A stretch of DNA of 55,154 bases, counting the filler, from Bipalium vagum (lineage: Eukaryota): assembly GCA_037834085.1 (NCBI GenBank). It is 3 parts of 3 records of this genome, joined end to end, with 100 filler letters (N's around TTAATTAATTAA, not from the genome) between each part and the next. Parts side by side here need not be neighbours in the genome. Positions count along the whole stretch, not along the records: positions 37,418 to 55,154 come from JBBMKC010053156.1; 2 more parts are not named here. One strand, written 5' to 3'. The position numbers were made by a program, and so were the translations under genes. This document shows positions 14,761-55,154 of the stretch, piece by piece. How positions within the stretch are numbered: position 1 is the first letter of the stretch; each line of letters begins with the position of its first letter. The notes under the pieces are model-generated. The model searched no databases. It was not told where the DNA came from and was given only the letters and a program-made list of their open reading frames with translations.

Positions 14761-16081
14761 TTACAATTTATAATTTATTGATCCATCTGAAGATCGATGT
14801 TGTTTTAGAGACCTTTCAGGTTCGGCGCCCGTTGAATTTCTCCGTTCAAAATTGGGAACTGTGAAAATTCTTGACAGCTCCCTTCCTTTGGTGTGGGTTT
14901 TTACGTGTCTCGATTTCTCATCGGAACGAGCGAACGTTTTCTGACAGATGTCACACTCAAACGGTCTCTCTCCTGTATGGGTTCTGCGATGGGTCTTTAA
15001 GTGATCACTGCGTGCGAATTTCTTGAAACAAAATTCACATGTATATGGTTTGATTCCGGAATGAACTCGCGAATGGCGATTCAACTCGTCAGATCGATTG
15101 AATTTCCGATTACACGATTCATGTGTACATATGAATTGCTTTTTCGGCTTCAAAACCGATTCAATTTCTGGACAGTCACCGGGATCGGGATTAGAAACTG
15201 ACTTCGACGTACCGGGATTATTACCGTCCCAGGAATGGAAATGTAACAATTGAAAATCGCTTATTTCCATTGATTTTGCTGGATAGTTTTTCAATCCACC
15301 GGTATCAATGTTAACATGCTCATTATGTATGATGGGTAAGATGTCATCCAAACAGATACTGGAGAATTGGGAAGAATATCCTCCGTTAAACGTATTGGTT
15401 TTCAATTGAAAATGGGAGCTGCCAAGAGAAAGCTGTCTGTACTCTGAATCTTTGATTTTTCTTATCCCGATTTCTGAATGACAAAAGAAAATGAAAGAAA
15501 TTTTGTTTCGACCAAAAAAGGAAAGGAAGCTTCAATTGTCAAATTAAAAATTCTATAGAATCATAAATAAATGGAATAAATCCACGCGGCAATCCCACCT
15601 ACACATGAATCAGCAACACCAAACAAAATTAGTTCAGTATTCACTACTTCGCTGATTTGTGAGTAGTGAACATTGCCGATGACTGTGACTCCGAAATGAT
15701 TGTCGTAGACAAAAATTAATAACAGTGCATTCTGTTCTTTATTTTAATAAATCTTGATAATTAAAAAACATTCTCTCAAACAAAAGGCAAAAAACACGTT
15801 ATATTTCCCTTACCAGCGTCAGATGAATAAGTTTTGTTATCAAAGTCGAAATATTGGTTTTGACATTCCAGCTGATTTGGCACATTGTCTTCTTCATCAA
15901 AGCGCATCGGAGTTCCAATACTGTCCACGCTACATTGATTGTCGAAAAATCCAAAACTATTGCTGGGAGGTGTTAATCCGGTTGTCACGTTGTCCAATTC
16001 CGTTCCATCAAGCCGATCCGTTCCAACCAAAGCGATCAATTGTTTTGGATCAACATCACTTGCGCAATTATGTGAACTCAT
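14761..16081 (-). CDS. egr: EGR-family (early growth response) C2H2 zinc-finger transcription factor, 2 exons (16081-15814, 15473-14761), 326 aa
   Basis: Three C2H2 fingers with EGR recognition helices RSDELNR / RSDHLKT / RSDEKSR and linkers HSGIKPY, HTGERPF. Donor G|GTAAGG (15813) and acceptor ttcag|AA (15473) join in phase 1 and keep the frame open to TAA. The paralogue cannot be assigned. Confidence 0.92.
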
Positions 16082-25106: not shown

Positions 25107-26000
25107 TACTAGGTGATGCAAAAGTTCGTACCTAAAATATTTCTTAAAGAAATTTTACATTCCAAATAAATTTTTGCCGTTACTTTCAAAATTTAATAGG
25201 GACATCATTTTATCTTTAAAATGTAGAATTTTATTTAAGTAGCAATTTATCATTTGTTTAAATATTGAATTATTGACTATTAGTTTTTGATTTTCAATAA
25301 ATATTTTTTTTCAAATCTTGTGATTAAGATGACTTCTACAAAAATTGAGATAAGAGTGTTGTTACGCCACTATTGGAAAGAAGACTTGAGAACGAGGGAT
25401 GCTTGCAAGGGGATATGCGAGTTTGAAAGTGAAGAAATTGCTGCTCAGAGGACTGCTGCTAAGCAATTCAAGCGCCTCAATAATGAAGATTTGAACCTTG
25501 AAGACAAGTCACATTTAGGTCGATCTTCTCTGCAAGTAGATGATGAATTGATTACAGCCTTGAAAAACAATCCTTCTTCAGATTCATACGATTTAGCTGT
25601 AAATGTTGGTGTACATCAAACAACTGTCCTGAGATATTTTCATCATCATAAAAACCACGACAAGATGCACACTACTTATGTGATGAGCAAGAGAGCAACA
25701 TAGTTGATATTTGCAAAATGATGCTTGAGAACCGTTAGTTCTAGCTGTGTGTCTGGTGTAATTTTGAAGGAATTCATCATTATGAACTGGTTTCAAACGG
25801 TAAAGCCATAAATGCAGAGCTTGTTTATGATGCACTTCAGCTAAAGTATCCTGTCCTTTTTCGTCGAAAGCGAGCATTGTTTCATCAGGACAATGCCAAG
25901 CCACAGATTGCTCGGACAACCAAAAAAATTGAAAACTTAGTAGTTGAGATCCTGCCTCATCCTTATTACAGTCCTGTGGCTGCACCATTTTATTATAATA
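25107..26000 (+). mobile_element. mariner element remnant
   Basis: HTH MTSTKIEIRVLLRHYWK...FKRLNNEDLNLEDKSHLGR, then LFHQDNAKP and LPHPYYSP. TIR-like TACTAGGTGATGCAAAAGTTCG at the 5' end. Confidence 0.8.
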
Positions 26001-26877
26001 TATTATGTTTAATTTGAACATTTAAAACAAAAACAATCGTTATTTGTTATTTGGAGAGGCTACATTCGATATTTGAAGAAAACGATATTATTATAGGTAT
26101 ATTATGAACTTTTCCTGGAGATTGTTCTATCGCAAAATTCTTGTAATGTATTTTCTTTCATTATCTGTTTTTTTATTGATAACAATTTTTTCTTTTATTT
26201 ATAAATTTAACATAATTATTGATGAATTGATTTTTGGTTATTATCTTTGACATATTACATTTGACTGTTGTTTTTTGTTCGAATGTAATTATTGAACCAT
26301 TTTGTACTTGGGGATATAAATACACGTTATTGCTTTACTGATTGTTGGAAATTGCACCACCTAACAGAAAATAGAGTCAGTTTTAAATTTGAAATATTAC
26401 ATATTGGAACAATATTATAAAACACTACAGTAAGTGGACCTTTCTTTTTTGTTATTTCATGAATTTTAGAAAGATAACAATTATTTTATAGCTTACTGTA
26501 CAATACATAATAAAAGTCACCCAGTGATAATCATGTTGAGGATCTTTTTCGAAGAGAGCTATGCATATTCAAAACTGCGAGAACTTGCACAAAACACACA
26601 ATGGATTTTCCTCATTATAAACGGAATTTAATTTGACACTTTTGGGGGGATTTTAACTTTATATTTTGATCTTTTCGTACTGATATTTTATACCAACAGA
26701 ATTTAATGAAATTCCATGTAGACATGAAGAAATAAATAACTAAATTAAGAATATAATTTCCTAATATAAACTACATGCTTGGATTTACTTTTTGAAAATG
26801 CACAAAAATGCCATCTATTTTTTACTAATAGTTCTAATCAAGTATAAAAACTATAAAGTTACAAATTAAAACAAAAT

Positions 26878-27626: not shown

Positions 27627-30600
27627 TTTAATTTTAATTAATAATAATAAAATTTTTTTACAAATATTAAGAATTTTTTTGTTAATAGCAAAATCACACC
27701 ATGGGGATTTTTCGGGAGATTAGGCTAATGGATTTCATGTCAGGAATCCATTAGCCTCGACAGGAGACTATCTCGGCGTAGAGATAGTGAGTGGCTATTA
27801 AGGAAAAATAGCCGTCTCCTTGTATAGTCTCTACGACTATAAAAGGAGATGGCTATTCCCGTTAATAGCGAGGAAACAAAACCAGAAAAGCCGTTAGAAA
27901 TCGTTATTGATTCGATTTCAGCATTAACGTAATCCTTGAACGTGATTTTATTTTACCCTTAATAAAGTTTTTTTGTGATTTGAATCGATTTAGCAATTGT
28001 AATTGTTGTGTTAGTGCAAATAAAGTTTTATTTCGAATTGGTTCTTAAGGGTGCGAATACAGTATTGTGGACGGTGATTTAAATACAAAAATGTTGAGAG
28101 GAATTACGAACACAACGAGTTATTAAAAATGAGAAGTCACGAGCAGACGAACACACTTTGCTACGTTTTAGTATAATAGTAACAATTTTAAGATACCCAG
28201 AGAAAAAGATCTGTAGGTGAAAATGCAGTAGAACGTAATGAATTGATTGATAGATACACAATGCTTAATTTGTTTAAACATTTCAAAGAGATAGATATGT
28301 ACATTTTTCGATGGACCTCGTTCCGGTCGGTAATTCTTGGTGAACAATAAAACTTTACAGAAAATGGTGATAAATAATCTACATAAAAGCACGAAAAGTT
28401 TATCAGTAGCACTTGGGCAATCCAAATATACTATAAATAGATCCTTACATAAGCTTGGATTTTCTGGGAAAGTACCAAAAGAAGATTCACATAAAGTAAC
28501 AATTTAGAGATGATCGCAGGATATTTATTTGCACTAAATTGCTAGAAAGTTATCTTAATGGTCATTTCTGGAAACAGATTATAATTCGGAATGAGAAAAG
28601 GATATTCTTCCAAAATTATGAAAGATTTAACGCCTTCAGACTACAACTTATTTCTCTCTATGTCTGCATTTTTCGGGATTGGCGGTTTGTTCATTGATAA
28701 AGAAGGAATAAATTTCAAATATTAATCATCTTTTTTTCTTTTATGTATATTTAAATAAATGTTGTTCTGTGGGAAAAGACTTTTGATACACCCTAACAGT
28801 TAAATTTAAAAACAAGCATAATAATACAATAAAACGAAAATGAGAATTAAATAATGTTAAACTAAGGATATTTATTCAGTAAAAGTAATTTCCATTACAT
28901 TTATTGCATTGTTGCCAACGCGAGGGTAATTTATAAATTCCAATTTTCCCATTTCCTGTAAAAGAAAATCTTTACAACATCAATGCTATTCAAAATGCTT
29001 TCAGTGAGTTTATCAATTACAGAAAGCCGGATTTTCATGTAATTGGAATAAATATACTTATTTCGCGTTGGCAGAAATGCATTGCTTGTTATTGATCATA
29101 TTTACAATTAATGGATATTTGATTAATTTAATAATAATTATTAATCTTTAATTTATTAATTATTTATAATTAATAAATTATTTATTTATTTATAAATATT
29201 TATGGATCACATATTATAACAGATAAATTAAATGAGTTTAACAATCCACCAATCTTAAAACTTTCAACAATATCTACCACCACATCCCACTGGTAAAGAA
29301 TTTAGAAATGGTTGATAATATTATTGAGATCCTCCAATGGCAGATTTTACATGAATTACACAATTAAAATTACATTAATATATTTATTTTCAAAACTTAC
29401 TCTTTGTTTTATTTTCTCATTCAAAAAAAATAAAACTATTTGAAAAAACACATCAAATACGGTCGAGTCGCTCAGAAAAATTTGTCCTTTAAACCTCATG
29501 GGATAGGAATCCTAGCAAATATTACGATCATTAATAAGCATACATTAGACAACCTGAAAAGATATATAACCGTATTTAAGCATTTTCGTATCACAAAGGG
29601 CTTCCAGAATTCGTTTATTTATTCCGTGGAAGTTGAAGAGAAATTTGTAGCCAAATATTTGACAGTCCTCATCCGATATTATCGCATCTAAGCTCATGTA
29701 AAATAATCTGATCACATTTAGAAGGGGAATCTTATCAAGATCCCAATCACCTGAAAGAAGCAAGATTATAAAAAGTATTTTTGGCATTTTTGTATATTTC
29801 CATATTATTTTATATTATCTTATAAATTATATATATATATATATTATATTTCCACCCGGTCTTCTGAAATCGATGAACTCTTGGAAGGCATTCCGAAAAG
29901 CATTGGAAGATTTTTCTCTTGCAGGAACTGGAAAAGATGATAAAATGATTGTGATTAGGCGACAGGTCCGTTAAATATTATGGATTAGGCAGACATTCAT
30001 ATCTAAATCATTCAACTTATGTAGGCATTGTTTGGCAATGTGTGAACAATATTGTCGCAAAGAATTATTGGAGGTTACAATGCGATGAAGAAATAGGGCT
30101 TTGTTGTTATAAAATAAAATGACAGACCGAATTTCATAACGACGATTTTTCTGAAAATCGTTCAATCCATGAGGCATCCATTTACAGAGCGTCGATGTTT
30201 TCACAAGATGGTGGAAATGTTGAGTGACTGACTCATGGCTTTTGGTAAGTCTCCCTCCGTTGTACATAAAAATGTCCTCGCTAATATCTTTAATTTACCA
30301 TTTTTGAACTGCTGAGGAACGTCCACGACTTGCATAACTTTGGAACCTTTTATTTCCACTCCTAAGAGTTTTGAACCAGTTTTGCACGGTGTTCTATTTT
30401 ACAATATTACACATATATGATTCTTCTCTTTCCTTCCCATCAGTTTTGATCTTCCCGGAATTCTCTTTAACCAACCTAAATCTAGAGATTTATTCCGCCG
30501 ATTAAATCCGGTGTGACTTTCTCTACTACTGTAAAGTTCACCAGTTTTGACTCATTTGCTACTCTCACCAAAATTGAGCATTTTCCTACTATTTTCAATT

Positions 30601-32578
30601 GGCTATTGTTCGCACACCTTAATCTGTCATTACTTCTCACTACTTCCACGTCTTTAAACTTATTCAAAATTTTCCTTCTCATCACACTGACCCCAGCTCA
30701 GTATCTAATAAGCATTCGAATCTTTGTTCTTGAATCTCTACCGTTATACTTGGTCTTCCGTTCATCACTCTGTCTATTATAAAGAAATATCCTCCTTCAG
30801 TCACAGCTCCCACATCTTCATCATTCTCCACATCACTAAAGTCTTTCTTCATGAATTTCCACACTTTTGCCCACATTCTTCTTTGCACCGGGCGCCCCTT
30901 TGGTAATCATCGCTGACGACGTTTAATATAAGGCTCCTACTAACTCCCCAACTAGCGGAGTCCTGTCTTTTGGGTACTGACTTTTCTCTTCTTCGCACTC
31001 GACCAGTCTATCACCGTCAACTTCCTCTTCTAATGCATTTAAATTATTCCTTCTATAAACTTTCTCTGGACCTCTGATCCTCTGTAATTGAAAACGTCTA
31101 CCATCATGAAGGTTCGTATAACATTCTCTTTTACTTTGCCCGTTCCTGTTGCACCACCTACACTTCATATTAGGACAATTTCTCCTAATATGACCCTCCC
31201 ATAGATCTTCATGTAACAGCGCAAAAATCGCTGCTTCTCTTTTCTTTATTGGGGTCTCCTTAATGTCAAAGTATCTTTGACATGTTTTTGACACCCTTTT
31301 CTAAGAACATCAGGAGCTATTCTGTCTGCGATCGAGTCCGACAGTGTTGATGCCGCAAAGTTATATTCTTGTGTAGTCATTTTTAAATAATAATTCAAAG
31401 TCGAAGCAATAATCATATATTTCATTAAATCCGATTAACCAAATAAACTTTTCAAACTTGGACCTCACCTTTTATTAAAATTAAATTATTTACTTTTTTA
31501 AAATTAACCAACATTTATTTGAAATATTTATTTTAAAATTTAAAAAACGTAACATTATAATTTTTAAAAACTTTAAATTAAAAACATTTAATAATTGTTA
31601 ATTATGGCGCGAGGTCCTTATTTAAAAAAATTCAAACAGACTAATTCTTCGAATCACTCCTTATAATATTAAAATATAATTAACTCATTTAAAGGTTTTT
31701 AGTATTCAAATGGCGTGCAGAAATTTAATCATTCCTTCCTTTTTACTGTATGAATATGGATACATATTAATATAAATTAATCATAATTAATAATCACATA
31801 TGAAAATGCAAAAAAACAATTTTTGTGCTTTCAAACTGTATATAAATTAATGCGTTCAAACAAATATTTTCCAAAGAGTCTGTTGTCAAGTGTGTATACT
31901 TAAAACACGCAATTATTTTCTTAGCAACCTAATGATATAATACAACGTAAAATATTATGAAAAAAAGAAAACGTATACAATAAAATAATAAATCTCTCAA
32001 TAATAGAAGTTCTAGAAAGTCATTTCACAGAGATTTAGAAATCGAAACAATTAATTCAGGTTATAAAGCGCAAGTGTAAAGTAATAAAGAAATTAAAACT
32101 AACTATATCTAAGTAGTATAATTCTCTCACCAGAGTCGATATTCCCAAGAGGGAGAAAAAATCTATAATATAAAGTCAGGTGGGTTTTTTCAACGTAATA
32201 ATAAATACTTCACCTAATATTTAAATATTCTTCAAACATAGGATCATTGATACTATAGGGTTTGAAGTAGCTTGGAATACCTCTTTCTGATGCCCTCACT
32301 GTACAAAAATTGTCGATTCTTTTCTGCGCCTTGATGTGATCAAACTTTGATACTCTCAGAAATCTTAGCAAAAATTCTGCATCTAAATCATGATAATAAT
32401 TTTAAGTGAGAGAAAAACACATGTTTGTACCAGTAGGACATTGGAGGTGGGGCATCGATTGAACCCACCTTCGCAGACTTTCAATGTGAGCATTAATTTG
32501 ATCAGGATTTTCACCTAATTCTTTGACTGTAAACTCTTTCGTCTTCTCATCGACTTTGTATTCGTATCTATTGGACAT
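26878..32578 (-). CDS. CRAL-TRIO domain lipid-transfer protein (alpha-tocopherol transfer protein/clavesin-like), 7 exons, 324 aa
   Basis: Exons 32578-32431, 32382-32214, 32162-32104, 29750-29554, 29511-29401, 27210-27099 and 27056-26878. All introns are GT-AG with matching phases (1,2,1,0,0,1), giving 975 nt open. Motifs: KELGENP, WVQSMPHL, DAEFLLRFLRVSKFD, DEDCQIFG, QDSYPMRFKG, ILLKEYGG, VNESKRP...GTYTKFE. Confidence 0.92.
27389..28795 (+). mobile_element. mariner element remnant with TIRs, inside CRAL-TRIO intron 5
   Basis: TAGGGTATATCAAATGTCTTTT versus the reverse complement of the right end TAGGGTGTATCAAAAGTCTTTT. Peptides DGPRSGR, LHKLGF, FWKQIIIRNEKRIFFQN, DLTPSDYNLF. Confidence 0.75.
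27702..28061 (+). mobile_element. Hairpin-rich LTR-like insertion inside the mariner
   Basis: GC-richer block with three inverted repeats, TATAAAAG (27838) and two AATAAA (27961, 28019). The TG...CA ends are tentative and no TSD was found. Confidence 0.45.
28900..29110 (+). mobile_element. mariner C-terminal remnant
   Basis: AFSEFINYRKPDFHVIGINILISRWQKCI matches the Hsmar-type C-terminus. Confidence 0.7.
29850..30410 (-). mobile_element. mariner transposase remnant (CRAL-TRIO intron 3)
   Basis: TVQNWFKTLRSG, KWMPHGLNDFQKNRRYEI...FLHRIVT, DLSP. Confidence 0.75.
30410..31470 (-). mobile_element. Gypsy LTR retrotransposon fragment: gag (central deletion), zinc knuckles, protease
   Basis: ATG at 31380 gives MTTQEY...DRIAPDVLRKG and CQRYFD. 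Knuckles GHIRRNC and CRWCNRNG..KREC, gag end GELVGALY*, protease GRPSIT...CLLDT and LRCANNSQL. Homologous to the element at 50500. Confidence 0.85.
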
Positions 32579-36388: not shown

Positions 36389-37317
36389 CAGTGCTACGCA
36401 ACCTTTTCACCCACGACACACCAAAAGTTAAAAGATATAGGTATGAAATTGATACGCAAATTTTACAATAAATTTTGTTTTGTTATTCGAAAAATATACG
36501 CAAAACTATAACATATTTATTCTATAACATATTTATTTTACACAATTTTAATAATTAATGTGACACCGGCGCTTGTTTCAATGAACACAAAAGTTTTATA
36601 TTCGGCTCGATATTTGACAGCGCAACCCGGAGTTCTTGATCAAGATCTTTTAAGCATGAACGTTTATCATTTTTAATTAATACAAGAGTTGAAAAAGTTT
36701 GCTCACACACATATGTCGTCGAGAATGGAAGCAGTGTTAAGATTGCTTTGTCTGAAATGCGAGGATATTCTTTTTTAACGTAAATCCAGAAAACATCTAA
36801 TGGAACTTCGGAGAAGTGAAGTTTTAATGTCATGTCGTTACTTAAATCTATGAATTCATCTCGAATTTGCAGAGGCAGTGCTTCCGTAGAATTTATTGCA
36901 TTGATTGCAAATGGATTTCGAATCCAATCGTATATTTCCGTATTAATGGAATAAAAATATTGTTCAAATTTCTGCTGAAGCATACTTAAATGTTCTTGGG
37001 CCAAATCCAAAATTAATTGTTTGCTTTTAATTGTACTATGGTTGATCCTTTGGAACATCTCCAAGCATCCTTTTTGCAACTCTTTCTGCCAAAGTTCAAG
37101 TTTTATTTTCAGCCCCTGTAATTTGTCGGCGCTCGTCAATATATTCTCATTGCTACCTTGCATTTTTTTTATTAAGTTCGTTCAAATGTTCAAATATATC
37201 AGCCATGTATGCAAGCTTGGTTATCCAGTAATCATCATCAAGGTATTGGTATAGTTCGGGCATATTTTGAATTAAAAGAAACTCACGTACTTCGTGACGA
37301 AGCTCAAACAATCTAGC
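36389..37317 (-). mobile_element. hAT (Buster-type) transposon, 3' part truncated by the assembly spacer
   Basis: Transposase C-terminus KLAYMADIFEHLNELNK-MQG...WIRNPF...LLPFSTTYVCEQTFS...ELRVALSNIEPNI (hATC dimerisation domain). TIR CAGTGCTACGCAACCTTTT at 36389 is flanked by the 8-mer GTTTACCA, which fits the Buster nnnTAnnn target. Confidence 0.92.
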
Positions 37318-39174: not shown

Positions 39175-41945
39175 ATGTCGGAATCTAAGGAAGAAATCGA
39201 TTTATTAAGGTAGTAACTGGAAATTTATCAAACCCTTTACCGTATTTTATTACTGTTGCAAGCTAAAAATTCAATATATATTTTCATACCTTACTCTTTA
39301 ACAATTTACTTCGGTATTGCAAAACGTTTCTACTATGATAAAGTGGTGTTATTTTTTATTTTTGATTTTTTTGTTTAATTTAATTTATTTTTATAATAAT
39401 TTTCAGTAATTAATTTTTCTATTTAATAAATTTAATTCAGTTTTTAAATTAAACAATGGACAATGTATATATATGTGTATATGTGAGACGCGTGTTCAGT
39501 TCGTGCAAGATTTTGTTATTTTGCATTTTGTCGAATCTGTCGTGCACGCGGTTTTCATTATATTTCTCTTTCAGTGAAAAAGAGTTAGAAGATGGTGAGA
39601 TTGAAGATGGTGAATTAGATGAGCCTGAGTTGAAAACGACCATTGTTATTGAGCCTGAACCTATTGTTACTATTGATAACTATGGTGGCTCTGATGTTGA
39701 TTTTGATGATAAGTACGTTGTGTGTAATGATTGAAATGGATTTTACGAAATTGGTTTTTTTAGGACGTTTCTTAAAAACAAGAAACATAAACATCATAAA
39801 AAAGGCTTCCATAGGAAACGACATAATACTTCCGAGGAAACCAGTGATAATGTTTGGAAAAAAATTAGAAATAGTAATGATGAATTTGATGATTATCAGA
39901 CCGATATCAGTGGTCCTGTGATAAATAATATAAATATAAATAATATAATGGACAGTGAAATCGGTCCATCTGAAAATCGTTTTAATGATAATCCACAACA
40001 TTTTAAATCTAAATCTGATCACGAATTTCGTGAATGGCGTAAATCTGATTCTTTTGATAAATGGGGAGATTACGAAAGCGATGAAGATGATAAAAATATA
40101 TCTAAAATCGGCCATAAACAAAATTTTTCTTCTGAAATAATAAATAAACACAGTGAGGTCGTCTTGTCTCCGGTTTATGAGCCTAGTTCCATTGATAATA
40201 ATATTGAACAACATGAGGTTAGCAAATGGAATTATGATAGTGAAGATGAGACCGAATCATCTACCTTTAATAAAGATAATGTAGAAAGAAAAACATTTGA
40301 TGAATGTAATGTCAATGATAATAACAAATGGTATTCTAATAATAATAACAATAAAGACTGGAACGATTTTTCATACCAAAATAAAGATGATTTAAATTTG
40401 CCTAAGAACCTTACTACTGATATGCAAGATTTAAAAGATAATTCACCAATTGTTAAAACGGGTTGGGGTTCTTATGACAGTCCTTGTGATGATAATGATG
40501 ATGTATATAAAAAGCCTGAATTGCCCGATAGTCCTCAAAAAACGATAAACGAAAGTTTTGGTAAGTGGAGTTCTTATGAGAGTCCTGAAAAGGCAACTGA
40601 TGAAAATCCGAAATGGGATTCTAATCAAATTAATGACAATGATCATGATCATGAATGGAATACTAGAAGAAATGATGATGGTAGTCAGAAATGGAGTTCT
40701 AGGGATAGTCCAAGAAGAAACGATGATGATTCGCAGCGATGGGGTTCAAGAGATGGTTATCGTAGAAATAATTTTCGTAGATGGGGCTCACGTGATGGCT
40801 TGCGCAGAAATAATAATAATAATTTTAGACGCTGGGGTTCACGTAATGGACCACAAAGAGGAAATAATCAAAGATGGGGCTCTTTTAGTAATAATAATAA
40901 TGATAATAAACCATGGGACTCTTCTAACAAAGATAGTTCACAGTATAATAATGATAATAAAAGATGGGAATCAAATAATGGAAGTCCTCAAAATATCAAC
41001 GAAAATGAGAATTCATCTTGGAGTCCCCAAGCTTTAAGCACTACACAAGTCAATGATAATCAAGATATTGAAGCTCCCGAAAAAGCTAAATGGGGTGTTT
41101 ATGATAGTGATGATAATCAAGATCAACTGACAACTTCAAATGATCCAATAAATGAGACCGATGGAACTACCAGCTTTGGATTTGAAGTTAATCCTGATAA
41201 AAATAGATGGGAATCTCAAAGTAATACAAAAAAAGACGATGATGTTGAACCTGGTTCGGGTTTTAATAAGTGGGGTTGTTTTGATAGTGACGAAGAAGAA
41301 GCATCAATAAAAAGAAACACTAGCAGCATGGATAATGCTAACAGCTCAAAATGGAAGTCATTTAACAATGATGGCGAAGGGAGGTCCGATTCATTCTTTG
41401 AAGCGAGAAATCCGTCAAATTACAACAATAATTGCAGCTGGAATCGAAATGATATGGATGACTTCCAGAATGAAAGAAATGATTTTAAGAATGATAAAAG
41501 CAAACGTTGGGCAAATCGTAACGATGGAGATAAACGAAGTGTCTGTAAATATTTTAGTATGGGGTCATGTAGGCATGGAGATCGGTGTACATTTTTGCAT
41601 TCGTCTCCACCAAAACCCGTTAATCAGGAAAATAAAAAAAAAGAACTTTGCAAATTCTACGAGCATCAACAGTGCTACAAACGTACAAATTGTATATATT
41701 TGCACGAAGAATTTCCTTGTAAATTGTTTCATGCTGGCTCGAAAATGTGTCCATCGGGTGACAGTTGCAAATATTCTCATGCTCCATTGAATCAGGAAAC
41801 GAAAACTCTGTTAGAAAAATATCTGGATGAAAAGGTAGATTTTATATTTGGATTTTTTTTGATTTTGATGTTTATATTATCAATTGAGGAACCTATGATG
41901 TGGATATTGTCGATTATTAAATCTTAATTAAATTTCATTTAAAGC

Positions 41946-44900: not shown

Positions 44901-46466
44901 TATAGACAGTCATTCTTCACAAATCATTTTTCCAGCTACAGTGTTCTTCAATTGTGCAAGATATTGAGGGTGAAAAGACGAATAAAATGTTTGACATTCG
45001 ACTGATTGATATTTTTAATTTGATTACAGGAATCTGTGAGAAAGCAGTTTTTTCGCGATTTTCTAATAGATCCACATTCTGGTCTTTTGGTATCCAGAAC
45101 AGTCTGTTTCTAAAAAATTCTTAAATGCTAGAAATAGATTTATATGTTTTCATGATTGCTCTTTACTTTCTCTTTTATCTTTGCCATAATTCTCAATCAT
45201 ATAAAATAAAAATGTATGATCAATATAAGTTTAAACTCTTGTACGAATGTTGTATTTATTTTCACCATAAAAAGCACTGTGTTCCACAATCAGGGGTTTG
45301 AGGGTAATTAAATTGCCTAAATTAGATAGTTTACTTAAGAAATCAATGACCTTTGCTATTCTAATTACACTTAAACAATTATGAATAAACATTTTTGTTT
45401 CAAAGTAAATTTTGAATATTCAGATAAATTCTTCTTTTTATAAATTTATTTATATTAAGTTCTGAAAATTCCAGAATGCCAATATATTCAATGCCAACTA
45501 TGACAGGAGCAAATCAAAAATTACATTCTGGAAACCTGTCGGATTTGAATGATAATTTCATCGTTTCAGATCCATATATTGATAATCTGGCTCAACTTGT
45601 GGTCAGCAGAGACTCTACTGGTTCTCCAAAACGACTGGTTGATATGCTTGATCCAAACTTGCAATGTGAAGATATTGACGATTTCTCACTAGAAATAGAA
45701 ACTAATAATTCAAAAACTAATTTATCTTCTCCCGTTGTTCTAAAATCGCCAGAAATTCCTCCAGGTGCATACGTTCCAAGAACAAGTATGAATATGGTTC
45801 AGCCTAATGTAAGATTGGTAAGAAATATTTTTTTTAGATGATAAATAAATGCTTAACTTTTAGGGACCAGGACCTGGATTTGGAGAACAACCTATGCTCT
45901 ATGGTGGATATCCAGGGCATCCTAACGAAACAGCCATGATGGATTATATCAATCTGTCGGCAATTCATTACTTTCATAACCACGGGGACCATATTGGCTA
46001 CGATTTTCCGTGGAAACTACTACTCCTTGAAGTTCCTGTTAAGGTTCCTTATCCATTAATGGTCATTGAAACTCAAGATTTACCACATAAATATACTGAT
46101 CCACGATTGAAGGGACATCCTAGTGTCTTTAATTCAAATAACACTAATAATAACTTTAATAAATCAATAACTCAGTCATATGATTTCAACAGTATTTCAA
46201 CTTTTGGATCACAGTTGTCATCACCGAATTTAGGAACAGGGAACTCTGAAACTTCTGATACATTAACACCAATAAATGATTTTCTGTCAAGATCTGATGA
46301 TCCAGAATCGCCATTATTTTCAATTGGAGAAGACTTGTTCAATTTTAAACAAAAAATTGAATCGCATCAAACGAGTGATCGATCTTATTTACAAGATCCT
46401 CGTTTTAAAAGGAAAAAGGTTAATGTAAATAGTACTGTTATTGAACAATCGGGTATGATGGAATGA
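39175..46466 (+). CDS. ZC3H4: ZC3H4/ZC3H6/Su(s)-family triple CCCH zinc-finger protein, 8 exons, ~1183 aa
   Basis: Exons 39175-39209, 39575-39712, 39764-41834, 43138-43180, 43228-43270, 43318-43578, 45460(or 45475)-45817 and 45864-46466. All introns are GT-AG and phase-consistent. Features: N-terminal EDGEIEDGEL, fingers VCKYF..G.C..GD.C.F.H / KKELCKFY...C....NCIYLHEEFPCKLFH...C..GD.CKYSH.PL, and C-terminal DPR motifs (TDPRL, QDPRF). ZC3H4 versus ZC3H6 cannot be resolved; it is probably a co-orthologue. Confidence 0.88.
41947..41982. repeat. (TTA)n microsatellite
   Basis: Direct repeat run. Confidence 0.9.
42086..43018 (-). mobile_element. mariner remnant with TIRs in ZC3H intron 3
   Basis: TATGTTGCCCCATAAAATATGACGCTTTT versus the reverse complement of the right end TATGTTGTCCTATAAAAATGTCGCTTTT. 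Peptides WFAKFKS, LTIFWNCDGILIFELL, FSPDIAASDF. Confidence 0.75.
44200..45320. mobile_element. Possible MULE/foldback-like remnant in ZC3H intron 6
   Basis: Three tandem TTAAATCT(G/C)ACAAC units at 44207-44279. CCTCAAACCC at the left has its inverse GGGTTTGAGG at ~45295. Internal coding is decayed. Confidence 0.4.
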
Positions 46467-46689
46467 GATGATATCTCTATTGTCTCTATCTCTTTCTCTC
46501 ACTCTTGTTACTTTTTTTGATGATAAACATTTTGTAAAAAATATTTTGTTTTAGATTTAGCACGTTTTTTGTAATACAATAAATTTGTATAAAAGGAATA
46601 ATGGAAGCTTAAGTTTATTACTGTTTTATATTTTTCATTATCAATAAAATATAACATTTTTCTTGAAAATGAAATAATATCATAGAGAC

Positions 46690-46900
46690 GCAATCCGATG
46701 ACCCACTCGTGAATGATGGTAGATCCAGTGACCCCAAACTGAATGTTTGAGTCAGTATCTTAGAGTTCCCTTTCAAGGTTGATAGTCACTTTAAGATAGC
46801 GTGCCAGGAAAAGGTCATCTTTGGTGAACACTCGCTTAAGCCAGAGCTTTCGTAATATCTGTGCTTCCACATTCTTTTCCTCAGAAGGTATTATTGGTTT
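46690..46900 (-). mobile_element. Possible PIF/Harbinger transposase HTH fragment
   Basis: TKDDLFL...INL...QFGVTGSTI..HEW resembles the HTH_Tnp_4 pattern (EDQLFL.L.KLR.N...DLA.RFGVS.STV..IF..W). Confidence 0.4.
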
Positions 46901-47289
46901 TGGTTATTGATATTATGACCAACCTGTTACCATTTGCGAGGTATTTTCATGAATCTTTTTGTTATACTTTTTAAATTTATTCGCTACAGTATTTTACTTA
47001 GTTTCTAAATTTTAAATACATTCAATACATCAAGATTATTCATAGAAATTCCTACATCATTATTTTACGTAAAGAATTTTTCATTGTAAGAAGTAATTTT
47101 CTCATTAATTAAACTCTTTACATCATAGTTATTATTTTTAATTAATTCCACAAGTAATGTGTAAAGATTAAAGCTTTCTCGACAACATATGGTTAATATA
47201 CACCATTTTCACCTCTATTTTGACAAAATGTTAATCACAACATGTATATCTACATGTTAAAAAATCAAAAACTTAATATATAAATACAT

Positions 47290-47620
47290 TTATTCATTAA
47301 TAATTTCCTTGTTCAAACATCTTTAATGTATGAAACCGTTTTCCTCTATCAATTTCCTTATTCGTGTAGTTTCTTAGTAGTACGAAAAGAAACATTGTCC
47401 ATTATTAAAAAAGCTAATGGTTTTTCTATTTATTCAAAAAGAGTCACCAAGATTGACCTCTCTTAGCTCTCATGCGTATATTACAGCCAACTTTGTCAAC
47501 AAAAAATACGTTACTTTCAGAAAATTAAGGAAGTTTAATAAATTCTTGTGCATAGCAAAATCTTGATTGTATATTGGAGGTATCATTTCTTTTTCTGGAA
47601 TATTAAACACTCGTTTCAAG
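47290..47620 (-). mobile_element. Possible IS630/Tc1 DDE fragment
   Basis: AFLIMDNVSFRT corresponds to the second-Asp motif IMDN..FH. Confidence 0.4.
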
Positions 47621-48139
47621 GTATATTTGTGTGTGTATTCTTCAATGTTTTAATCTAATTAATAAATAAATAAAAATGGAAGAATCATAACAAAACTTAG
47701 TAAATATTTTATCACAAAAATATTAATGATCTTTTATAATAAAAAGTAAGAAATCAGATATTATTACCAAATTACAAATTCAATTAATATTAAATCCAAA
47801 TTTTAATTATGAATTTGATTTATTACATTTTTCTTCATTTAATTCTATTTTTAATATTAAAGAAAATAATAAAATTATTATAGAAGTTACAAAGAAAAAG
47901 AATTTATATAAAAATAAAACTGACTCCGATTTCATTTAATTATATAATGATATTATCAAAAGACTGTGCAGTTATATTTTCAGAAAAAATGGTTAAGGAA
48001 ATATTTAGGATTTGAAACTATAAAAAAGATATTTAGAAAGAATTCATTATTCAAAACCAACAAATATTACAAGTTTAAATAGAATTAAGGTTTAATGTAA
48101 TATTGTTAAAGGAACTTTTTATATATAGCTTTTGTAGAG

Positions 48140-49290
48140 ATGCAAAATATAGTCGAATTTAAACCCTTACCAGCTATTAATGAAAGAGGAATATACTCCC
48201 CTGAAGATATTGACCGAGCCAAGGAAATAATACTCTTTCCTCAGGCACAAGAGAGAGGGATAATATAAATGATCACAAAAATCTACAATGCCCAACAAGG
48301 AAAGATGGATTATAATTTATTATTCGGAGCAGACCATTACATTCACGCAGCAAAAAGTGTCTTAACATATATTTGGGGAGGTTTTAATACATTCGCAACA
48401 TGGGTAGCCGGATTCTCTGGAATATATTTTATCTGTCAAATAATAAGAGGAATTGGTAGTAGTTTTATGTCAGGTTGCAGTTTACATCACGCACTAGGAT
48501 GCTCATGGACATTAGTTTTAGCCCTATGTCCACCAGTCGCCAACCGCGAATTACATAAAAGACATAGAAAAGATATTGATTTATTGAGAAAGCAATGTCA
48601 TTATAGGTACAGACCTATCACTAGAACTTCAAAGCACCGGCATCACCATAGGAAACATAATAATAGTAATGACGACAACGGATCAACACTGCCAAAACCT
48701 GCAATCACAGAACCAAAAGATTACTGGCCAAATTGGGATATAGAGGAACCGAAAGACATTTATAGTACCACCACACCCTTGATCTTATTTCACTCTCAGA
48801 TAAAATTCCAAGTCCTCTACCATCGCCCAAATCGAAGAAAAACCGGAAGCGCAAGAGTGTTCCGAGTTTGGTTCGATGGGCTAAGGAATTATTCTTTCCA
48901 TCCGATCCACACACTGAAGACTGAAGTAGTACAGAAGTAAACAGTACACAAGTTTTTCGCGCTCTACCAATAACTCACCCATTGGATATAGATGCACCTT
49001 TAACAAAATTTAGAGGAAAGAAAATTAAACAGGAGGTACAAATTACCCACAACCATGCTATTCCAAAATCCATACTATCCCCAAAGGGGAAACCATTCGA
49101 AGTAGTGGCAGTTATTGCTCGTGGTCCCAAAGGTGAGCATGTTATCTTACACATGCCTCAACCTTCTTTGGAGGACAAAAGTTTTGAATCCACCGGAGAA
49201 ATGTGGAGACTACAACTAGGTCAAGCCCCTAGTCAAGCGCAGAATTCAAATCAACCAAACCAAGAGCAACCAGTCCAAACCAAAAACTGA
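48140..49290 (+). pseudogene. Decayed chuvirus-like glycoprotein (env-like), C-terminal part with membrane anchor and long tail
   Basis: In frame from 48140: EFKPLPAINERGIYSPEDIDRAKEIILFP..*...IWGGFNTFATWVAGFSGIYFICQIIRGIGSSFMSGCSLHHALGCSWTLVLALCPPV. This matches the recalled chuviral-type G pattern GIY...DL......IMFP ... W.GF..FG...AG..GI......I..I...G..LH...G.S..L..A. Lesions: stop at 48266-48268, frameshift at ~48775, stop at ~48922. Confidence 0.7.
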
Positions 49291-49672
49291 TCGCTAATAT
49301 TGTGTTTATATTTACATGAACATTATTATCCTAAGAGTGTGCTTATTCTTACATTAACATTATTTCTCATATTGTGTGATTAGTATTTCCTTCAATTTTA
49401 TTTGATCCTCTCATTGTAAAAATATTAACATTATTTTCTTTGTTTCTATGTATAATTTGATATTTTCAGCGTAAAAATATACACGTGTCTTGTAAAATCG
49501 TTCTTGATAGATTTGTATAAATAAAAATAAGTAATAAATTAATAAATTAAGCAATAATAAATAATTAAAAAGGAGAATAGGAAATATCATAGTAAATAAT
49601 ATATTGATAATAAGATAATGTATATACAAATAATATCTTGCGGAATAGCATTAACAGTAGTATTATTTATGT

Positions 49673-50466
49673 GTAAGCGTAGAGTAATATATATTATTAT
49701 TAATGATTATAGTATTTATTTATCTATTTATTTATTAAAGTAAAATATGGAAAAATTAGGAAAAATTATAATAAAGTAACATAAATTTACTAATAATAGA
49801 AAATTGGTAAGAATTTTTATATTGGAAAATAAGAAAGTGGTAAAAATAGAAAAGAGAAGAACAAAAGAATTTTAATAAGGAAAAGAAAATTACTATTTAT
49901 GGAAAAGAGAGTAAAAAGAACAGTATAAAATAAAACAAAAAACTACAAGAAGTCGCACAAAAATAAATAAAAACAATAACAAAATAAAAATAATTGATAT
50001 TTGATATTCCCTTTTATTTAATTAAGCAGGCGTGTCTTGTTAGACAAGACACATTTTGTCCATAAAAAATAAGTAAATACTCAGGCCAGGACCTGAGGAT
50101 TATCTAACTTTTTCACTTTTCCGCTCCTTATAACTTTTTCTTATTACTGTTCATATTTCACACCCTAAGTAGGACGGTGAGATATATTTTTCTTCTTAAT
50201 TGAGGTCCTCTGAGCCTAAGAGCAAGAGGATTTTTCCTAAATAATAAATACAATTAATAAAATCAAATAAATCAGTCAAGATCGATATCACTTATTTGTA
50301 ATCTTAAACTTTATTTTGGACAAAATAAAATTATTAAAGTCGATTCTTTCTCTCAGTTAATTTAACTAATTATAACCGAATACCATAGTAAGCAACCTTC
50401 ACTCGTTATGACCTAAGCATAATAACCTCCACCTTTAACATCAACCCAATTTTTAGGATCTTAACA
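49673..50466 (+). mobile_element. LTR-like segment downstream of the env-like ORF
   Basis: TGTAAG...CTTAACA ends, an A-rich 5' half, a hairpin cluster at 50030-50230 and AATAAA at ~50256 and ~50323. No convincing PPT or TSD. Confidence 0.4.
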
Positions 50467-50499: not shown

Positions 50500-53400
50500 C
50501 CGATGACTACGAGATGCACCAAAAAGGAAGAGCTCCGACAGATGGGGAGCTAGTCGGAGCTGTGTACTAGGAAAAAGCAGTAAATCTCCTCTTATCTCGT
50601 ATTATAATATCAGGAGTTTATCTCCTATTATATTTCATGGAAAGGTAGAAGAAAGGCAAGAAGAAGAGAATCGAATGAATGATAAAGTATATAAATTTTT
50701 AAAGAAGGACAATATGAATGGTACGAGTACTTTAAGCGGAATTGAGGAAGAGATGAACTCGGTGAAGATAATGTCGATAGGTGAGTTGAAAAATGCAGAT
50801 ATAGTTTACCATAAGATGCAAGGACGTCCAAGTATCACATTGAAGATACGAGGTATAGAAATTGATTGTCTCCTGGACACAGGAGTGAGAATGAATGTGA
50901 TGAGTGCAGATCTATTTCACAGATTCCAAAATACGAAGATGATTGAAAGCAATGAAAAATTAAGATGCGCAAATGAGAGCAAGTTAGAATTGATAGGAAA
51001 AGCTGAGTTAGAAGTGGAGATCCGTGACAAAACGAGAAACATTACTTTCAGGATAGTGGATCACATCACGCCAAATGTTCCTTATAATCTCTAACAGCCT
51101 TTGGTGATTTGATATATTCAAAATTTCTGTGGTCTTTTGAAATCTTTCAGCATCTGATATCATTCTTCCAAACTTTGCTTTAATATTGCATACGTCATTT
51201 TCCATCTCTTATGGTTGTTTACACTCCCATTGTGAAGCCAATGTCTTTATGGCAGATAAATGGGATATTGGGTGCAATGACCTGTTGAAACATAAGATTG
51301 TGACGAAAGGAAATCCCATTAATGTGAAACCTTGGAGACAACCGGTTCATTTAAAAAATAAAATAGTCGAGGCTATTTTAAACTTGTATAAAAATAAAGT
51401 CATTAAAAGATGCAATTCTCCTTGGAGAAGGATATTCGACTCTTTTTAGACTTCAGAAGATTGAACGCAATCACAGAGAGATAGGATTTCTAAATGCACA
51501 ACATAGAAGAAATGTTAGATAAACTCGCGGGAGCTCGGTATTTTAGCTCTATTGATTTAGGGAATGAGTACTATAAGGTAGAATTGGAAGAAGAATCGAA
51601 GGAGAAAACAGCATTCTCTACAAAATCAGGTCAATATAGTTTTAACAGAATGCCTTTCGGAATAGGAGCGGCACCGGGATTCTTTCAAGAATTAATGACT
51701 AAGGTACTCAACAGAATGGAATGTGCATGTGTATATCTGAATGACATATTGGTGTTCACCGAAAACATAAAGAAGCATTACAAAATTTTAAATCATGTTT
51801 TAAGAAGCATTCGTGAAGCAGGACTACGCATAAGCCCAGAAAAGTGTCACATTATCACACTTACATTAAGGGTTACATTATCAGCAAAGATGGAATCGAA
51901 ACGGATCCAATGAAAATAGAAACGATTAAATCGTAGGAAAGACCAAAGTGTGTAAAAAGTCTTCACAACTTTCTTGGCATCTGTAACTATTACAGAAGGT
52001 TCATCAAAGGATATTCGGAAAAATCAAGATCACTAGAAATAATGTGTGGGAAAACAAACAGGAAATTAATCTGGTAAGATAACTGTGAAAAGGCGTTTGG
52101 GGAGATGAAAGAAGCCCTGACAAGGTCACCGATATTATGTTTTCCAGATGTAACCAAAGAATTCATCCTGGAAACATATGCCAGTTTTGATTCTATAGGA
52201 GCTGTGTTATTGCAGAAAGACGGATACGGAAAGGAAAGAGTAATAGCTTGTGGATCACACGCGATGAGTCCTCATGAGAAGGGATATAGCATCAAGAGGA
52301 AGGAATTAATCGCCATTTACTTCTTCTGTAATCACTTCAATCACTATTTATATGGAAAAAGATTCACACTGAGAACGGACCACAAGGTTATAACGTTCAT
52401 GCTAACAACAAAAAAGCCAATTACAGCACAGTTCCAAACCTGGATAAATTACTTGAGTAGTTTGGTCATAAATTTAGAATATCGGAAAGGCACAGAACAT
52501 TCTAACGCTGACATGTTGTCGAGAAGATCCTGTGTCTTATGTCACACACAGATGCTAAAGTGTGGAAGATGAAAATGAGAATTTTAAATGTGTTGACTGA
52601 AGACAGTGAAGAACATTGGCAAAGAAATAGCCCGGAGATTCGGAAAATCAAAGAAAACATTACTCATGGCAGGGATAAAACTTCATAATATCCGACAATA
52701 TTATATTCACTAAGAACAATAAAATATGAATATTGCAGGAGAAGAAATAAGAGTTTATCAGACATCATCACAAGCTGTTATCACATGCGGGGTCAGAGAA
52801 AGTAAAGAAATATATTTCCCAAAATTTTGACATCGAAAGCTTGAGTAGTACGGTTGCGGAAAATATAAGACAGTACGAAACGTGTCAAAGAGTCAAGACG
52901 GTTACAACACACATGAAGGAAAAACCAGTGAAAATCTCATCGGTAGAGCCATTTGAAAAAGTATACGTGGATATTTGTGGACCTTTAAAAGAAACATTTC
53001 ACAAAAAACGATATATCCTGGCAATTATAGATCATTTTAGTAAGTAAATAGTACTTTTGACCATTGCAAGACAAGACAATAATACAGTCGTCAAGGTGTT
53101 CCGAAATAATTAGATCCTAAAGTTTGGCGCTCCGAAAGAGATACATGCGGATTGCGGGAAATGTTTTGAGTCCCAAGAATTTAAAAAGCTAGCAGTGGAC
53201 ATAGGGGCAGGCTTGATCGTCTCTAGTCCGTACCACCATAATACAAATGGAGTCGTTGAACGACAATTTCGTACCATTAGAGAGTATGTAAACACAACTT
53301 TAAAAGATAGAAAGAAAACCGATTGAGCAGAAATTTTACCAGAAATCGAGTATACTCTAAACGCATCTGTACAGAAGACAACACGTATGAGTCCGGCAGA

Positions 53401-54467
53401 GCTACTGTAAAATCCCGAGTATAAGCTGCAGCGCGTATTAGCTGCACCATTTATGTTGAAAACACATGATTTTAAAATCAGCAACCTATCATTAAAAAAC
53501 AAATTTCACCGTGACAATAACAATTTTGTTTTAATCGTTTATATCGTTTACATTGTTTATTGCACTGTTTTGAATCCTTGATTAAAATGAATAACGATTC
53601 TGAACAAAAACAAAAAAAACAACGAAGATCTTTTAGTTCAGCAAAGAAAAAAGAAATTATTGAATTAGCTCGTCAGTTAGGAAGCATACGGAAGTTGCAA
53701 GACGATATGATATTAATGAAACTGTTATTCGACGATGGATAGCCCAAGAGTCTGTTATCAAAGCAATGAATCCAAATCGAAGATCTTTGCGTGGTGGTAA
53801 CGCTAGATATCCGGAATTGGAAACGAAATTACACGAATGGATCCTAATTCAACGTGAACGAGAACTTCAAGTGTCGGTTGTTCGAATTCGTTTACAAGCA
53901 CAAGTAATTGTCAAAGAGATGAAGATTGAAGGATTTGTCGCGAGCTCTCAATGAACTGATAGTTTCATGACACGCAAGAATATTTGTGTTCTAGAAAATT
54001 TCAGTTTTATTGACAATGAAAAGTGTGATGGTTTTGAGGAGTATGATGTTGAAAATTGAAATAAATAATCTTATCTTGGATTTGAATTGTTTTTTAGTTG
54101 TATAAGCTGCACATCATATTAGCTGCAATTCAAAAATGTTGCCTTTATGTACATATTAGCTGCAGCTTATACTCGGGGTTTTACGGTAATTTTGGGCCGG
54201 AGAATAAATAGAGAAAGATGGTTCAGTAGGAATCAAATACCTAGAGAGGAGGCTATTGAGAAAATCAGACAAGAATCACGGAAGTTTGTAAATCAAGAAA
54301 CCAGAAGGAACTTTACAGAAGTTAGAACCAAAGATTAAGATAGATACGAGGGGCCATACGAAATTAAGAAAAATATCCATGACAGATGTTACGAAATGAC
54401 AGATACGAATGGGAAGAAAGTGGCCAGAAACATTGAAAAGATCAAGAAATTCTTTAAAAACGGTGGA
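50500..54467 (+). mobile_element. Degenerate Gypsy LTR retrotransposon, internal region (gag end, PR, RT, RNase H, IN, PPT)
   Basis: gag end GELVGAVY*; protease CLLDTG; RT FSSIDLG..Y, KTAFST, RMPFG, YLND (from YLDD); RH IGAVL.Q, KEL.AI, FTLRTDH, NADMLSR; IN H..L.H.G/C..C, YVDICGP, IIDHFSK, SPYHHNTNGVVER, GPY. Domain order is PR-RT-RH-IN. PPT-like AAAAACGGTGGA precedes TGT at 54468. Confidence 0.93.
53405..54186 (+). mobile_element. Non-autonomous pogo-type (BrkDBD + CENP-B HTH) transposon inserted in the Gypsy integrase
   Basis: 28-bp TIRs CTGTAAAATCCCGAGTATAAGCTGCAGC / CCGTAAAACCCCGAGTATAAGCTGCAGC (2 mismatches) with TA TSD at 53403 and 54187. Removing the element restores integrase SPAEL|ILGRR. 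Encodes RRSFSSAKKKEIIE... and RYPELETKLHEWI...; the DDE is missing. Confidence 0.93.
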
Positions 54468-55154
54468 TGTGAGGATTGTAATGGAAATAATTAAATTTAT
54501 TAATGATTATTTGTTTAAATAATTAAAACGGGACGGATATTATTGTTTTTGAAATATATCTTAGTATTATGGATTTTCTTGATAATACTGAACAGATTAA
54601 CATAGTGACCACACCAGTAGACCCACTGGCTGGAAGACTGTTACCCAAAATTCTGCAAAGAGGTGACAACATCGAAAAATTTATTGGCCAATGTCGAAGG
54701 TATTTTGATTTATTAGAAAAATCAAGAAAGGCCAGAGAAAGGATGATCTATGCCATCATTGACGAAGACCTCATCGAAGATTATGAAAAACAGCTTCAAA
54801 AGCAGATGGCTTTGAAGCTAGATTGCGACTAGCTTTTGCAGAACCGGTAAACATGATATCAGATTGGGAAAACCTATTACAATATTGAAGAGGAAACGAA
54901 GATATCCAATCATTTGTGAAGATAATAAAGGAGAAAGTGAAGAAGGCGTTGGTGCACCAAATCACAGAAGAAAATGTAATATCAAGAATGTTAGTACACT
55001 GCGTGAATGACGAAGAAATTGTTCGAGAAGTAGAAATGAGAGAACTAAAAAATATAGATGATATTGAAGCTCTGATGAAAAAATGGAAGTAATTAATAAA
55101 AAGAGAAACGAGAAAGTCAATGTTGTCCGAAACTACAGTGATGCTGTCAAGAAG
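54468..55154 (+). mobile_element. Gypsy 3' LTR start and gag-like ORF (ATG 54569), running off the window end
   Basis: TGTGAGG follows the PPT. LAGRLLPKILQRGDNIEKFIGQCRRYFDLLEKSRKARERMIYAIIDEDL aligns with the gag at 31380 (IADRIAPDVLRKG..CQRYFDIKETPIKKREAAIFALLHEDL). Confidence 0.8.

Follow-up and report, generated by a model that had tools for sequence, protein, structure and literature searches.

What kind of element left part of a viral fusion-protein gene at positions 48134 to 48772 of the window (the whole stretch of DNA analysed, 55,154 nucleotides in length, filler included), a short way upstream of a Gypsy retroelement? The initial annotation had read the locus as a chuvirus-type fusion glycoprotein followed by an LTR-like segment, and had offered both a retroelement with a captured env at its 3' end and a stand-alone viral insert as explanations. 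At a probability of roughly 0.87, we judge that the fragment derives from a Ty3/Gypsy retroelement of Burro-like type, whose env would lie between gag and pol in the same reading frame; for this host's copies, that linkage is inferred from relatives 66% alike. Features from the repeated DNA ahead of the fragment to the end of the Gypsy are as follows.

47309..48133, no strand assigned: AT-rich, moderately repeated DNA abutting the 5' break of env (read depth 1,586-3,453, 50-100 times that of the flank)
48134..48772, plus strand: C-terminal quarter of env (PF24664, E = 5.5e-21; alignment with the relative L007 reaches 48772)
48773..48939, plus strand: candidate frameshifted rest of the env-to-protease linker, up to a probable junction (weak)
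48925..49290, plus strand: 121-codon end of an orphan ORF, repeated in the host (depth 12,518)
49291..49990, plus strand: AT-rich untranslated stretch (19% GC)
49991..50466, plus strand: LTR-like end with hairpins and a terminal ACA (depth 68,623; fold z -2.41)
50500..54467, plus strand: decayed, env-less Gypsy with gag end, PR, RT, RH and IN (Pfam)
54468..54602, plus strand: short TG...CA LTR of that Gypsy, 135 nt, directly after the end of integrase

With its stop codon read as X, the fragment matches Pfam model PF24664 (Monjiviricetes_fusion) at 74.6 bits over profile positions 463 to 630 of 653, above the curated cut-off of 27 bits. The match continues in register on both sides of the stop (profile positions 463-498 and 512-631), and the unbroken ORF at 48269-48937 alone still scores 45.5 bits (E = 3.7e-12). 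An Atlas similarity of 0.93 between the env piece and a PF24664 cluster is counted only as agreement with Pfam. The identification as a chuvirus-type class III fusion glycoprotein fragment is therefore upheld, with a Pfam match far beyond chance and a gB-like fold predicted for the relative L007. What is left comprises the end of the ectodomain, membrane-proximal and membrane segments (the latter only moderately hydrophobic, with a 19-residue mean of 1.47) and the start of a cytoplasmic linker. Several searches around and with this piece returned nothing further: no Pfam family was found in six frames upstream of env as far as 46600, nor any protease after env within the window; searching the PDB by sequence with nothing but the fragment yielded chance matches only; and word-index protein searches with env (longer and near) gave no match. 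A viral-contig match, L001, was rejected as spurious, covering 25 residues on a contig of 60% GC, and further viral-contig scans gave no match.

The fragment is truncated at its 5' side: three quarters of the protein are missing, and no complete ectodomain stands in an open frame. A single decayed frame from 48140 to 49290 had been described earlier; the three motifs then quoted do share one frame from 48140, but a stop codon at 48266-48268 interrupts that frame, which closes at 48940. The ORF at 48925-49290 is distinct and read in a different frame, so the extension of a single frame to 49290 is wrong. With its start, its signal and three quarters of its ectodomain gone and a stop codon gained, the window copy is unable to encode a fusogen. 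It is a decayed, non-coding remnant of a class III (gB-type) viral fusogen gene. The 5' break of env (48130-48137) coincides with a pyrimidine run plus AG resembling a splice acceptor, which may be chance in AT-rich DNA.

The nearest relatives of the fragment, 52-67% identical to it in amino acids, come from a metagenome scan. Identity is 67% to the env of locus L008 and 66% over 152 residues (72% in nucleotides over 437 nt) to that of L007, where the alignment, to polyprotein residues 1366-1575, runs on into the linker between env and protease. L007 has one stop-free ORF of 3,184 aa on a contig of 11.9 kb, with domains in the order zf-CCHC, UBX, Bcl-2-like, PF24664, protease, RVT_1, RNase H and integrase. 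The UBX match is weak (E = 8.7e-4, 19.9 bits against a cut-off of 21). A profile of five hand-picked segments that precede env, taken from L007, L002, P0018, P0001 and P0030, matches Bcl-xL with E = 2.5e-5; L007 alone gave no Bcl-2 match. The PR, RT, RH and IN of L007 all belong to Gypsy-type Pfam families, and its pol contains none of what we take to be the Pao-type families. At its 5' end an ACA end is followed, ahead of gag, by a TGG primer-site-like motif; the contig stops before a 3' LTR. A hydrophobic segment lies near residues 884-896, ahead of env. The roughly 400 residues after integrase (L007:8701-9954) are strongly hydrophobic at two places, around residues 2851 and 3134, and resemble a second membrane protein; the C-termini of P0008, P0014 and P0113 are similar by eye, and no real Pfam match was obtained for this extension. 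Directly after the polyprotein stop stands a 607-aa ORF2 (L007:9958-11781) with no Pfam or PDB match, and its candidacy as a DEDDh exonuclease found no support in those searches.

Folding of the L007 env from a 57-row alignment gave pLDDT 83.8 and pTM 0.57, against pLDDT 32.7 from the single sequence. Among PDB entries the L007 env model matches herpesvirus gB (E = 5e-14, TM 0.34-0.40), in BFVD it matches a chu-like G (E = 1e-39, TM 0.61), and the PF24664 family profile matches gB by sequence too (E = 5e-4). The model, which was made for the relative and not for the window fragment, points to a gB-like class III fusogen fold for the L007 env. The likeness to Chuviridae/Jingchuvirales G and herpesvirus gB lies in the PF24664 match of the fragment and in the predicted fold of the L007 env. 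Unlike those glycoproteins, this env is borne by a retroelement as part of a polyprotein, and the window copy is a non-coding remnant.

Gene order among relatives was surveyed more widely. A phmmer search with env against 1.84 billion representatives returned 111 matches at E <= 1e-3, 16 of them at E <= 1e-10. By motif screen, env is followed by a protease motif in nine of those 16, and the other seven are six short fragments plus P0002, whose contig has a protease just past a stop; at phmmer ranks 17-111 the motif follows env in only five of 95. Pfam scanning of 17 matches, picked by length or rank, found an aspartyl protease after env in ten, with RT and RNase H too in three; six showed env only, and P0020 proved a false match. 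The metagenome scan yielded eight env loci, all from one assembly. Protease comes after env in five of these (L007 and L002, which also have gag before env, and L004, L006 and L009) and RT in one, while two end too early; env after integrase was found in none of the eight. Stand-alone glycoproteins of about 650 aa have lower phmmer scores and are placed elsewhere in the env tree.

Several of these relatives have peculiarities of their own. In P0001, P0007, P0008, P0011, P0012, P0013 and P0113, env is apparently followed by at least two tandem aspartyl protease repeats. P0014, a 2,627-aa Env-PR-RT-RH-IN polyprotein, carries the NCBI label of hypothetical protein under a Flavobacteriaceae MAG, where animal retroelement DNA has probably been binned with bacterial sequence. 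P0030 (1,963 aa) and P0023 (1,352 aa) are Gag-Env proteins in which further cargo separates gag from env; env is the only Pfam family found in them.

The env tree, a quick maximum-likelihood search over 121 rows and 155 columns that left out six of 127 matching rows as too short or weak (P0002 among them), groups the window with L004, L006, L007 and L008 in a set of five rows with SH-aLRT 99. Polyprotein envs and named chuviruses fall on opposite sides of a branch with support of 88. Identity to eight named chuviral glycoproteins is 23-29%, a range that also covers the beetle EVE tested, against 66-67% to the closest retroelement envs. An env nested among chuviral glycoproteins is contradicted by both comparisons. 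Between window and L007, pN is 0.19 and pS 0.64, for dN/dS of about 0.15; the ratio to L008 is about 0.2. Substitutions being mostly silent, purifying selection evidently acted on the lineage while it still coded for env, ahead of the decay of the window copy.

Two read runs contain the stretch, of which run X1 is identical to the window over 45000-47308 and may come from the source sample. Read depth, which as taken here from contigs gives no copy number, is 27-56 in the unique flank at 45000-47308, 1,586-3,453 at 47034-48050, 17,858 in env (48051-48389), 12,518 in the tail ORF (49068-49406), 400 at 49407-49745 and 68,623, the highest of the region, at 50085-50423. The unique contig stops at 47308; the repeated DNA that follows, at 47309-48133, has loose ends near 47840 and 47872 and shows no Pfam family in six frames. 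Depth in env is several hundred-fold that of the unique flank and is spread over many divergent contigs, up to 31 per site: the env stretch is highly repeated in the host. Such repetition indicates that env is borne by a transposon and is not a lone viral insert. At the stop codon, 48266-48268, nearly all of the depth reads a sense codon, and the stop is therefore peculiar to the window copy or to a minority. An LTR retroelement as carrier of the fusogen, proposed from the outset, is borne out by this repetition together with the Gag-Env-Pol ORF in which the nearest env, that of L007, is found.

The Gypsy that follows begins with only the last 20 or so codons of gag, recognised by a by-eye likeness to the gag end at 30923-31300, and no env stands between its integrase and its LTR at 54468-54602. 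Its identity to L007 is 42% in RT, 38% in RH and 30% in IN, and its RT is 40-42% identical to the RTs of six env polyproteins, which share 53-80% with one another. RT is more conserved than env in the polyproteins, where env identities of 33-38% go with RT identities of 54-60%, and about 60% in env with 79% in RT. Because RT is always the more conserved, an env at 66% cannot pair with an RT at 42%, and the two must be separate elements. The truncated gag noted earlier upstream of this pol is real, and the nested insertion drawn from it is one of two arrangements that would suit an unrelated env, simple adjacency being the other. Two further observations concern this Gypsy: at 54468-55154 two tandem copies share the 135-nt LTR, after which come a primer-site-like motif and a further gag; and its integrase contains the remnant of a pogo/Tc5-like DNA transposon (53403-54188) with 30-nt terminal inverted repeats that are 93% identical.

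Three other origins for the env fragment can be weighed on this evidence. The window itself, where an ORF end, AT-rich DNA and an LTR-like end come after the env piece and no protease does, would suit an env at the 3' end of a BEL/Pao element of Anakin type, or of a GAG-POL-ENV Gypsy, followed by its own 3' UTR and 3' LTR, and such elements exist (PMC7642597 and PMC13524379, in the parts drawn on here). This arrangement is nevertheless improbable: in all six informative loci among relatives of 52-67% identity env lies ahead of protease or RT, homology extends past the membrane segment into the env-to-protease linker, the pol of L007 is Gypsy-type without a Pao-type family, and the stand-alone glycoproteins of about 650 aa score lower and sit elsewhere in the tree. 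The BEL/Pao parallel and the 3'-terminal env of the initial annotation accordingly give way to a Gypsy-type pol with env between gag and pol. That env and the following pol form one element with env upstream of pol is more improbable still. The two share a strand, lie 2.3 kb apart and have similar depth (16,000-28,000 for the Gypsy, 18,000 for env), and orders with env before pol are published (PMC13524379, in the part drawn on); against this, the adjacent RT is equally remote, at 40-42%, from all six env-polyprotein RTs, and a gag end and an LTR-like end intervene between env and pol, which has its own, unlike 135-nt LTR. We give least credence of all to a stand-alone endogenous fragment of a chuvirus glycoprotein mRNA, which would be hard to credit despite the naming of PF24664 for Monjiviricetes, the survival of a fragment only, and the closest likeness of the L007 fold being to a chu-like G. 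Set against those points are identities of 66-67% to retroelement env and 23-29% to named chuviruses, depth several hundred-fold over the unique flank in many divergent contigs, and placement in the tree with the polyprotein envs; repetition and placement likewise disfavour the stand-alone EVE that had been kept as an option in the initial annotation.

The best frame of 48773-48939 compares with the L008 linker at z 1.58, a value reached by 77 of 1000 shuffles. In four read contigs the sequence ahead of 48939 is a different one, which suggests a junction at that point. The tail ORF at 48925-49290, with which the last ORF of the element may end, had no usable match in Pfam, viral contigs or the Atlas; against L007 ORF2 it reached z 0.33 over the whole and 1.85 over the last 130 aa, chosen by eye, neither of them significant. 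A 37-nt tandem duplication (49294-49378) follows its stop. The AT-rich 3' region that had been reported is present, at 19% GC over 49291-49990. So are the parts of the hairpin-containing TG...CA segment, with TG at 49673, CA at 50465-50466 and a hairpin of 9 bp spanning 50032-50052. A start of the LTR at 49673, in turn, finds no favour, with no purine tract before it, no second copy in the window and the low depth of 400 at 49407-49745. The LTR-like segment folds somewhat better than shuffles (z -2.41) and is unlike the LTR of the adjacent Gypsy; no TGG primer-site motif was found after 50466. Its likeness to the L007 5' LTR end has z 2.32, and since three of 23 other pairings scored higher, it is not counted; control pairs in the L007/L008 likeness tests reached 2.55-2.64.

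That the tail ORF and the LTR-like end are the 3' end of the same element, joined on after deletion of pol, is in our estimation a shade better than an even bet. The alternative, that 48940-50466 belongs to a third, unrelated element inserted into or next to the env fragment, is a serious contender at somewhat short of even odds. The junction signal at 48939 speaks for a third element, as do a GC content of 42-43% at 48773-49290 against 37% in env and the lack of significant likeness between the 3' part and either ORF2 or LTR of L007. On the other side, the tail depth is of the same order as that of env, and the three weak likenesses (linker, end of the last ORF, LTR end) occur in the expected order, each of them non-significant and all chosen after the fact.

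If the parent was organised like L007, the following course of events may be proposed, with a topology drawn from the L007 layout and general knowledge of membrane polyproteins. An intact parent would make a single Gag-Env-Pol polyprotein. The hydrophobic segment that precedes env would serve as an internal signal, directing the ectodomain to the ER; the membrane segment still kept in the window would stop transfer and anchor env. PR-RT-RH-IN would form the cytoplasmic tail, to be cut free by the protease, and the product would be enveloped particles, predicted to be able to fuse with other cells. The window copy would subsequently have lost gag and three quarters of env at its 5' side and gained a stop, and probably a frameshift too.

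Both the layout and the env type are already known from the literature, to which the window copy adds a decayed relative. Planarian Burro has a single ORF with Gag, ubiquitin-like and BCL2 domains, an in-frame env and PR-RT-RH-IN; its env matches mononegavirus fusion proteins, its copy number is high, and decayed fragments occur in Dugesia japonica. Burro, or GYPSM1, is one of the giant Gypsy elements of planarians (Arkhipova and Yushenova 2019, PMC6431247, also citing Grohme et al. 2018; here and below, statements follow the portions of the papers drawn on). L007 repeats the order Gag CCHC, a weakly matched ubiquitin-like segment, BCL2-like, Env and PR-RT-RH-IN in a single ORF. It differs from Burro in ORF length (3,184 aa against 4,873-5,140 aa), in extent (a contig of 11.9 kb against an element of more than 30 kb) and in having no MATH, BIR, ankyrin or dUTPase-like match by Pfam, and the window holds only the env remnant. 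On account of size and cargo, L007 is filed as a Burro-like GAG-ENV-POL errantivirus, not as Burro proper.

GAG-ENV-POL elements with gB-type env are described from Nematoda, Bryozoa and Platyhelminthes, nine of them from flatworms (Chary and Hayashi 2026, PMC13524379). By eye, the N-terminal env of L007 resembles the Platyhelminthes_C1a rows of that study, Smed_errantivirus_4 most, and is unlike the Nematoda_c2 rows. The broken window copy would not pass the study's intactness filter, and a single fused ORF is not discussed in the portion of its text covered here. Anakin BEL/Pao elements and Jingchuvirales glycoprotein EVEs of arthropods (Dezordi et al. 2020, PMC7642597; 2023, PMC10084718) tie the same Pfam fusion-protein family to LTR retroelements; they differ in their BEL/Pao pol and arthropod hosts, whereas every pol linked to env among the present relatives is Gypsy-type. 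With the layout in print (PMC6431247, PMC13524379), the suggestion of a new env-bearing retroelement lineage is withdrawn.

With this locus a further host is recorded for Gypsy families with gB-type env, in what seems to be a high copy number, and the fragment led to an intact, compact Burro-like ORF in L007 and to about ten related metagenome polyproteins. This set eases study of how one polyprotein supplies cytoplasmic Gag/Pol and a lumenal fusogen, and of the role of the Bcl-2-like domain. A more far-reaching scenario would combine a young, very high-copy, compact Burro-like family; a window copy from a non-autonomous sub-family (env anchor, last-ORF end and LTR) moved in trans; a host outside the three phyla with reported GAG-ENV-POL elements; and production of enveloped particles by one Gag-ubiquitin-like-Bcl2-Env-Pol polyprotein that ends in a second membrane protein. 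We consider it unlikely that all of these hold together.

Elsewhere the window is AT-rich DNA with animal genes (DBINO, C2H2 EGR-like and CCCH), along with transposon remnants. A word-index protein search with the CCCH protein gave no match. The flatworm host that the initial annotation thought probable would accord with the published elements closest to this one.

1096-1620, minus strand: INO80-like DBINO exon (Pfam)
14761-15531, minus strand: EGR-like triple zinc finger (Pfam)
25284-26017, plus strand: mariner-like transposase remnant
about 29400-32550, minus strand: gene with short introns, presumably of a CRAL-TRIO-like family, with a Gypsy fragment at about 30400-31400 (by eye)
36555-37181, minus strand: hAT transposase remnant
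39735-41927, plus strand: CCCH protein (Pfam)
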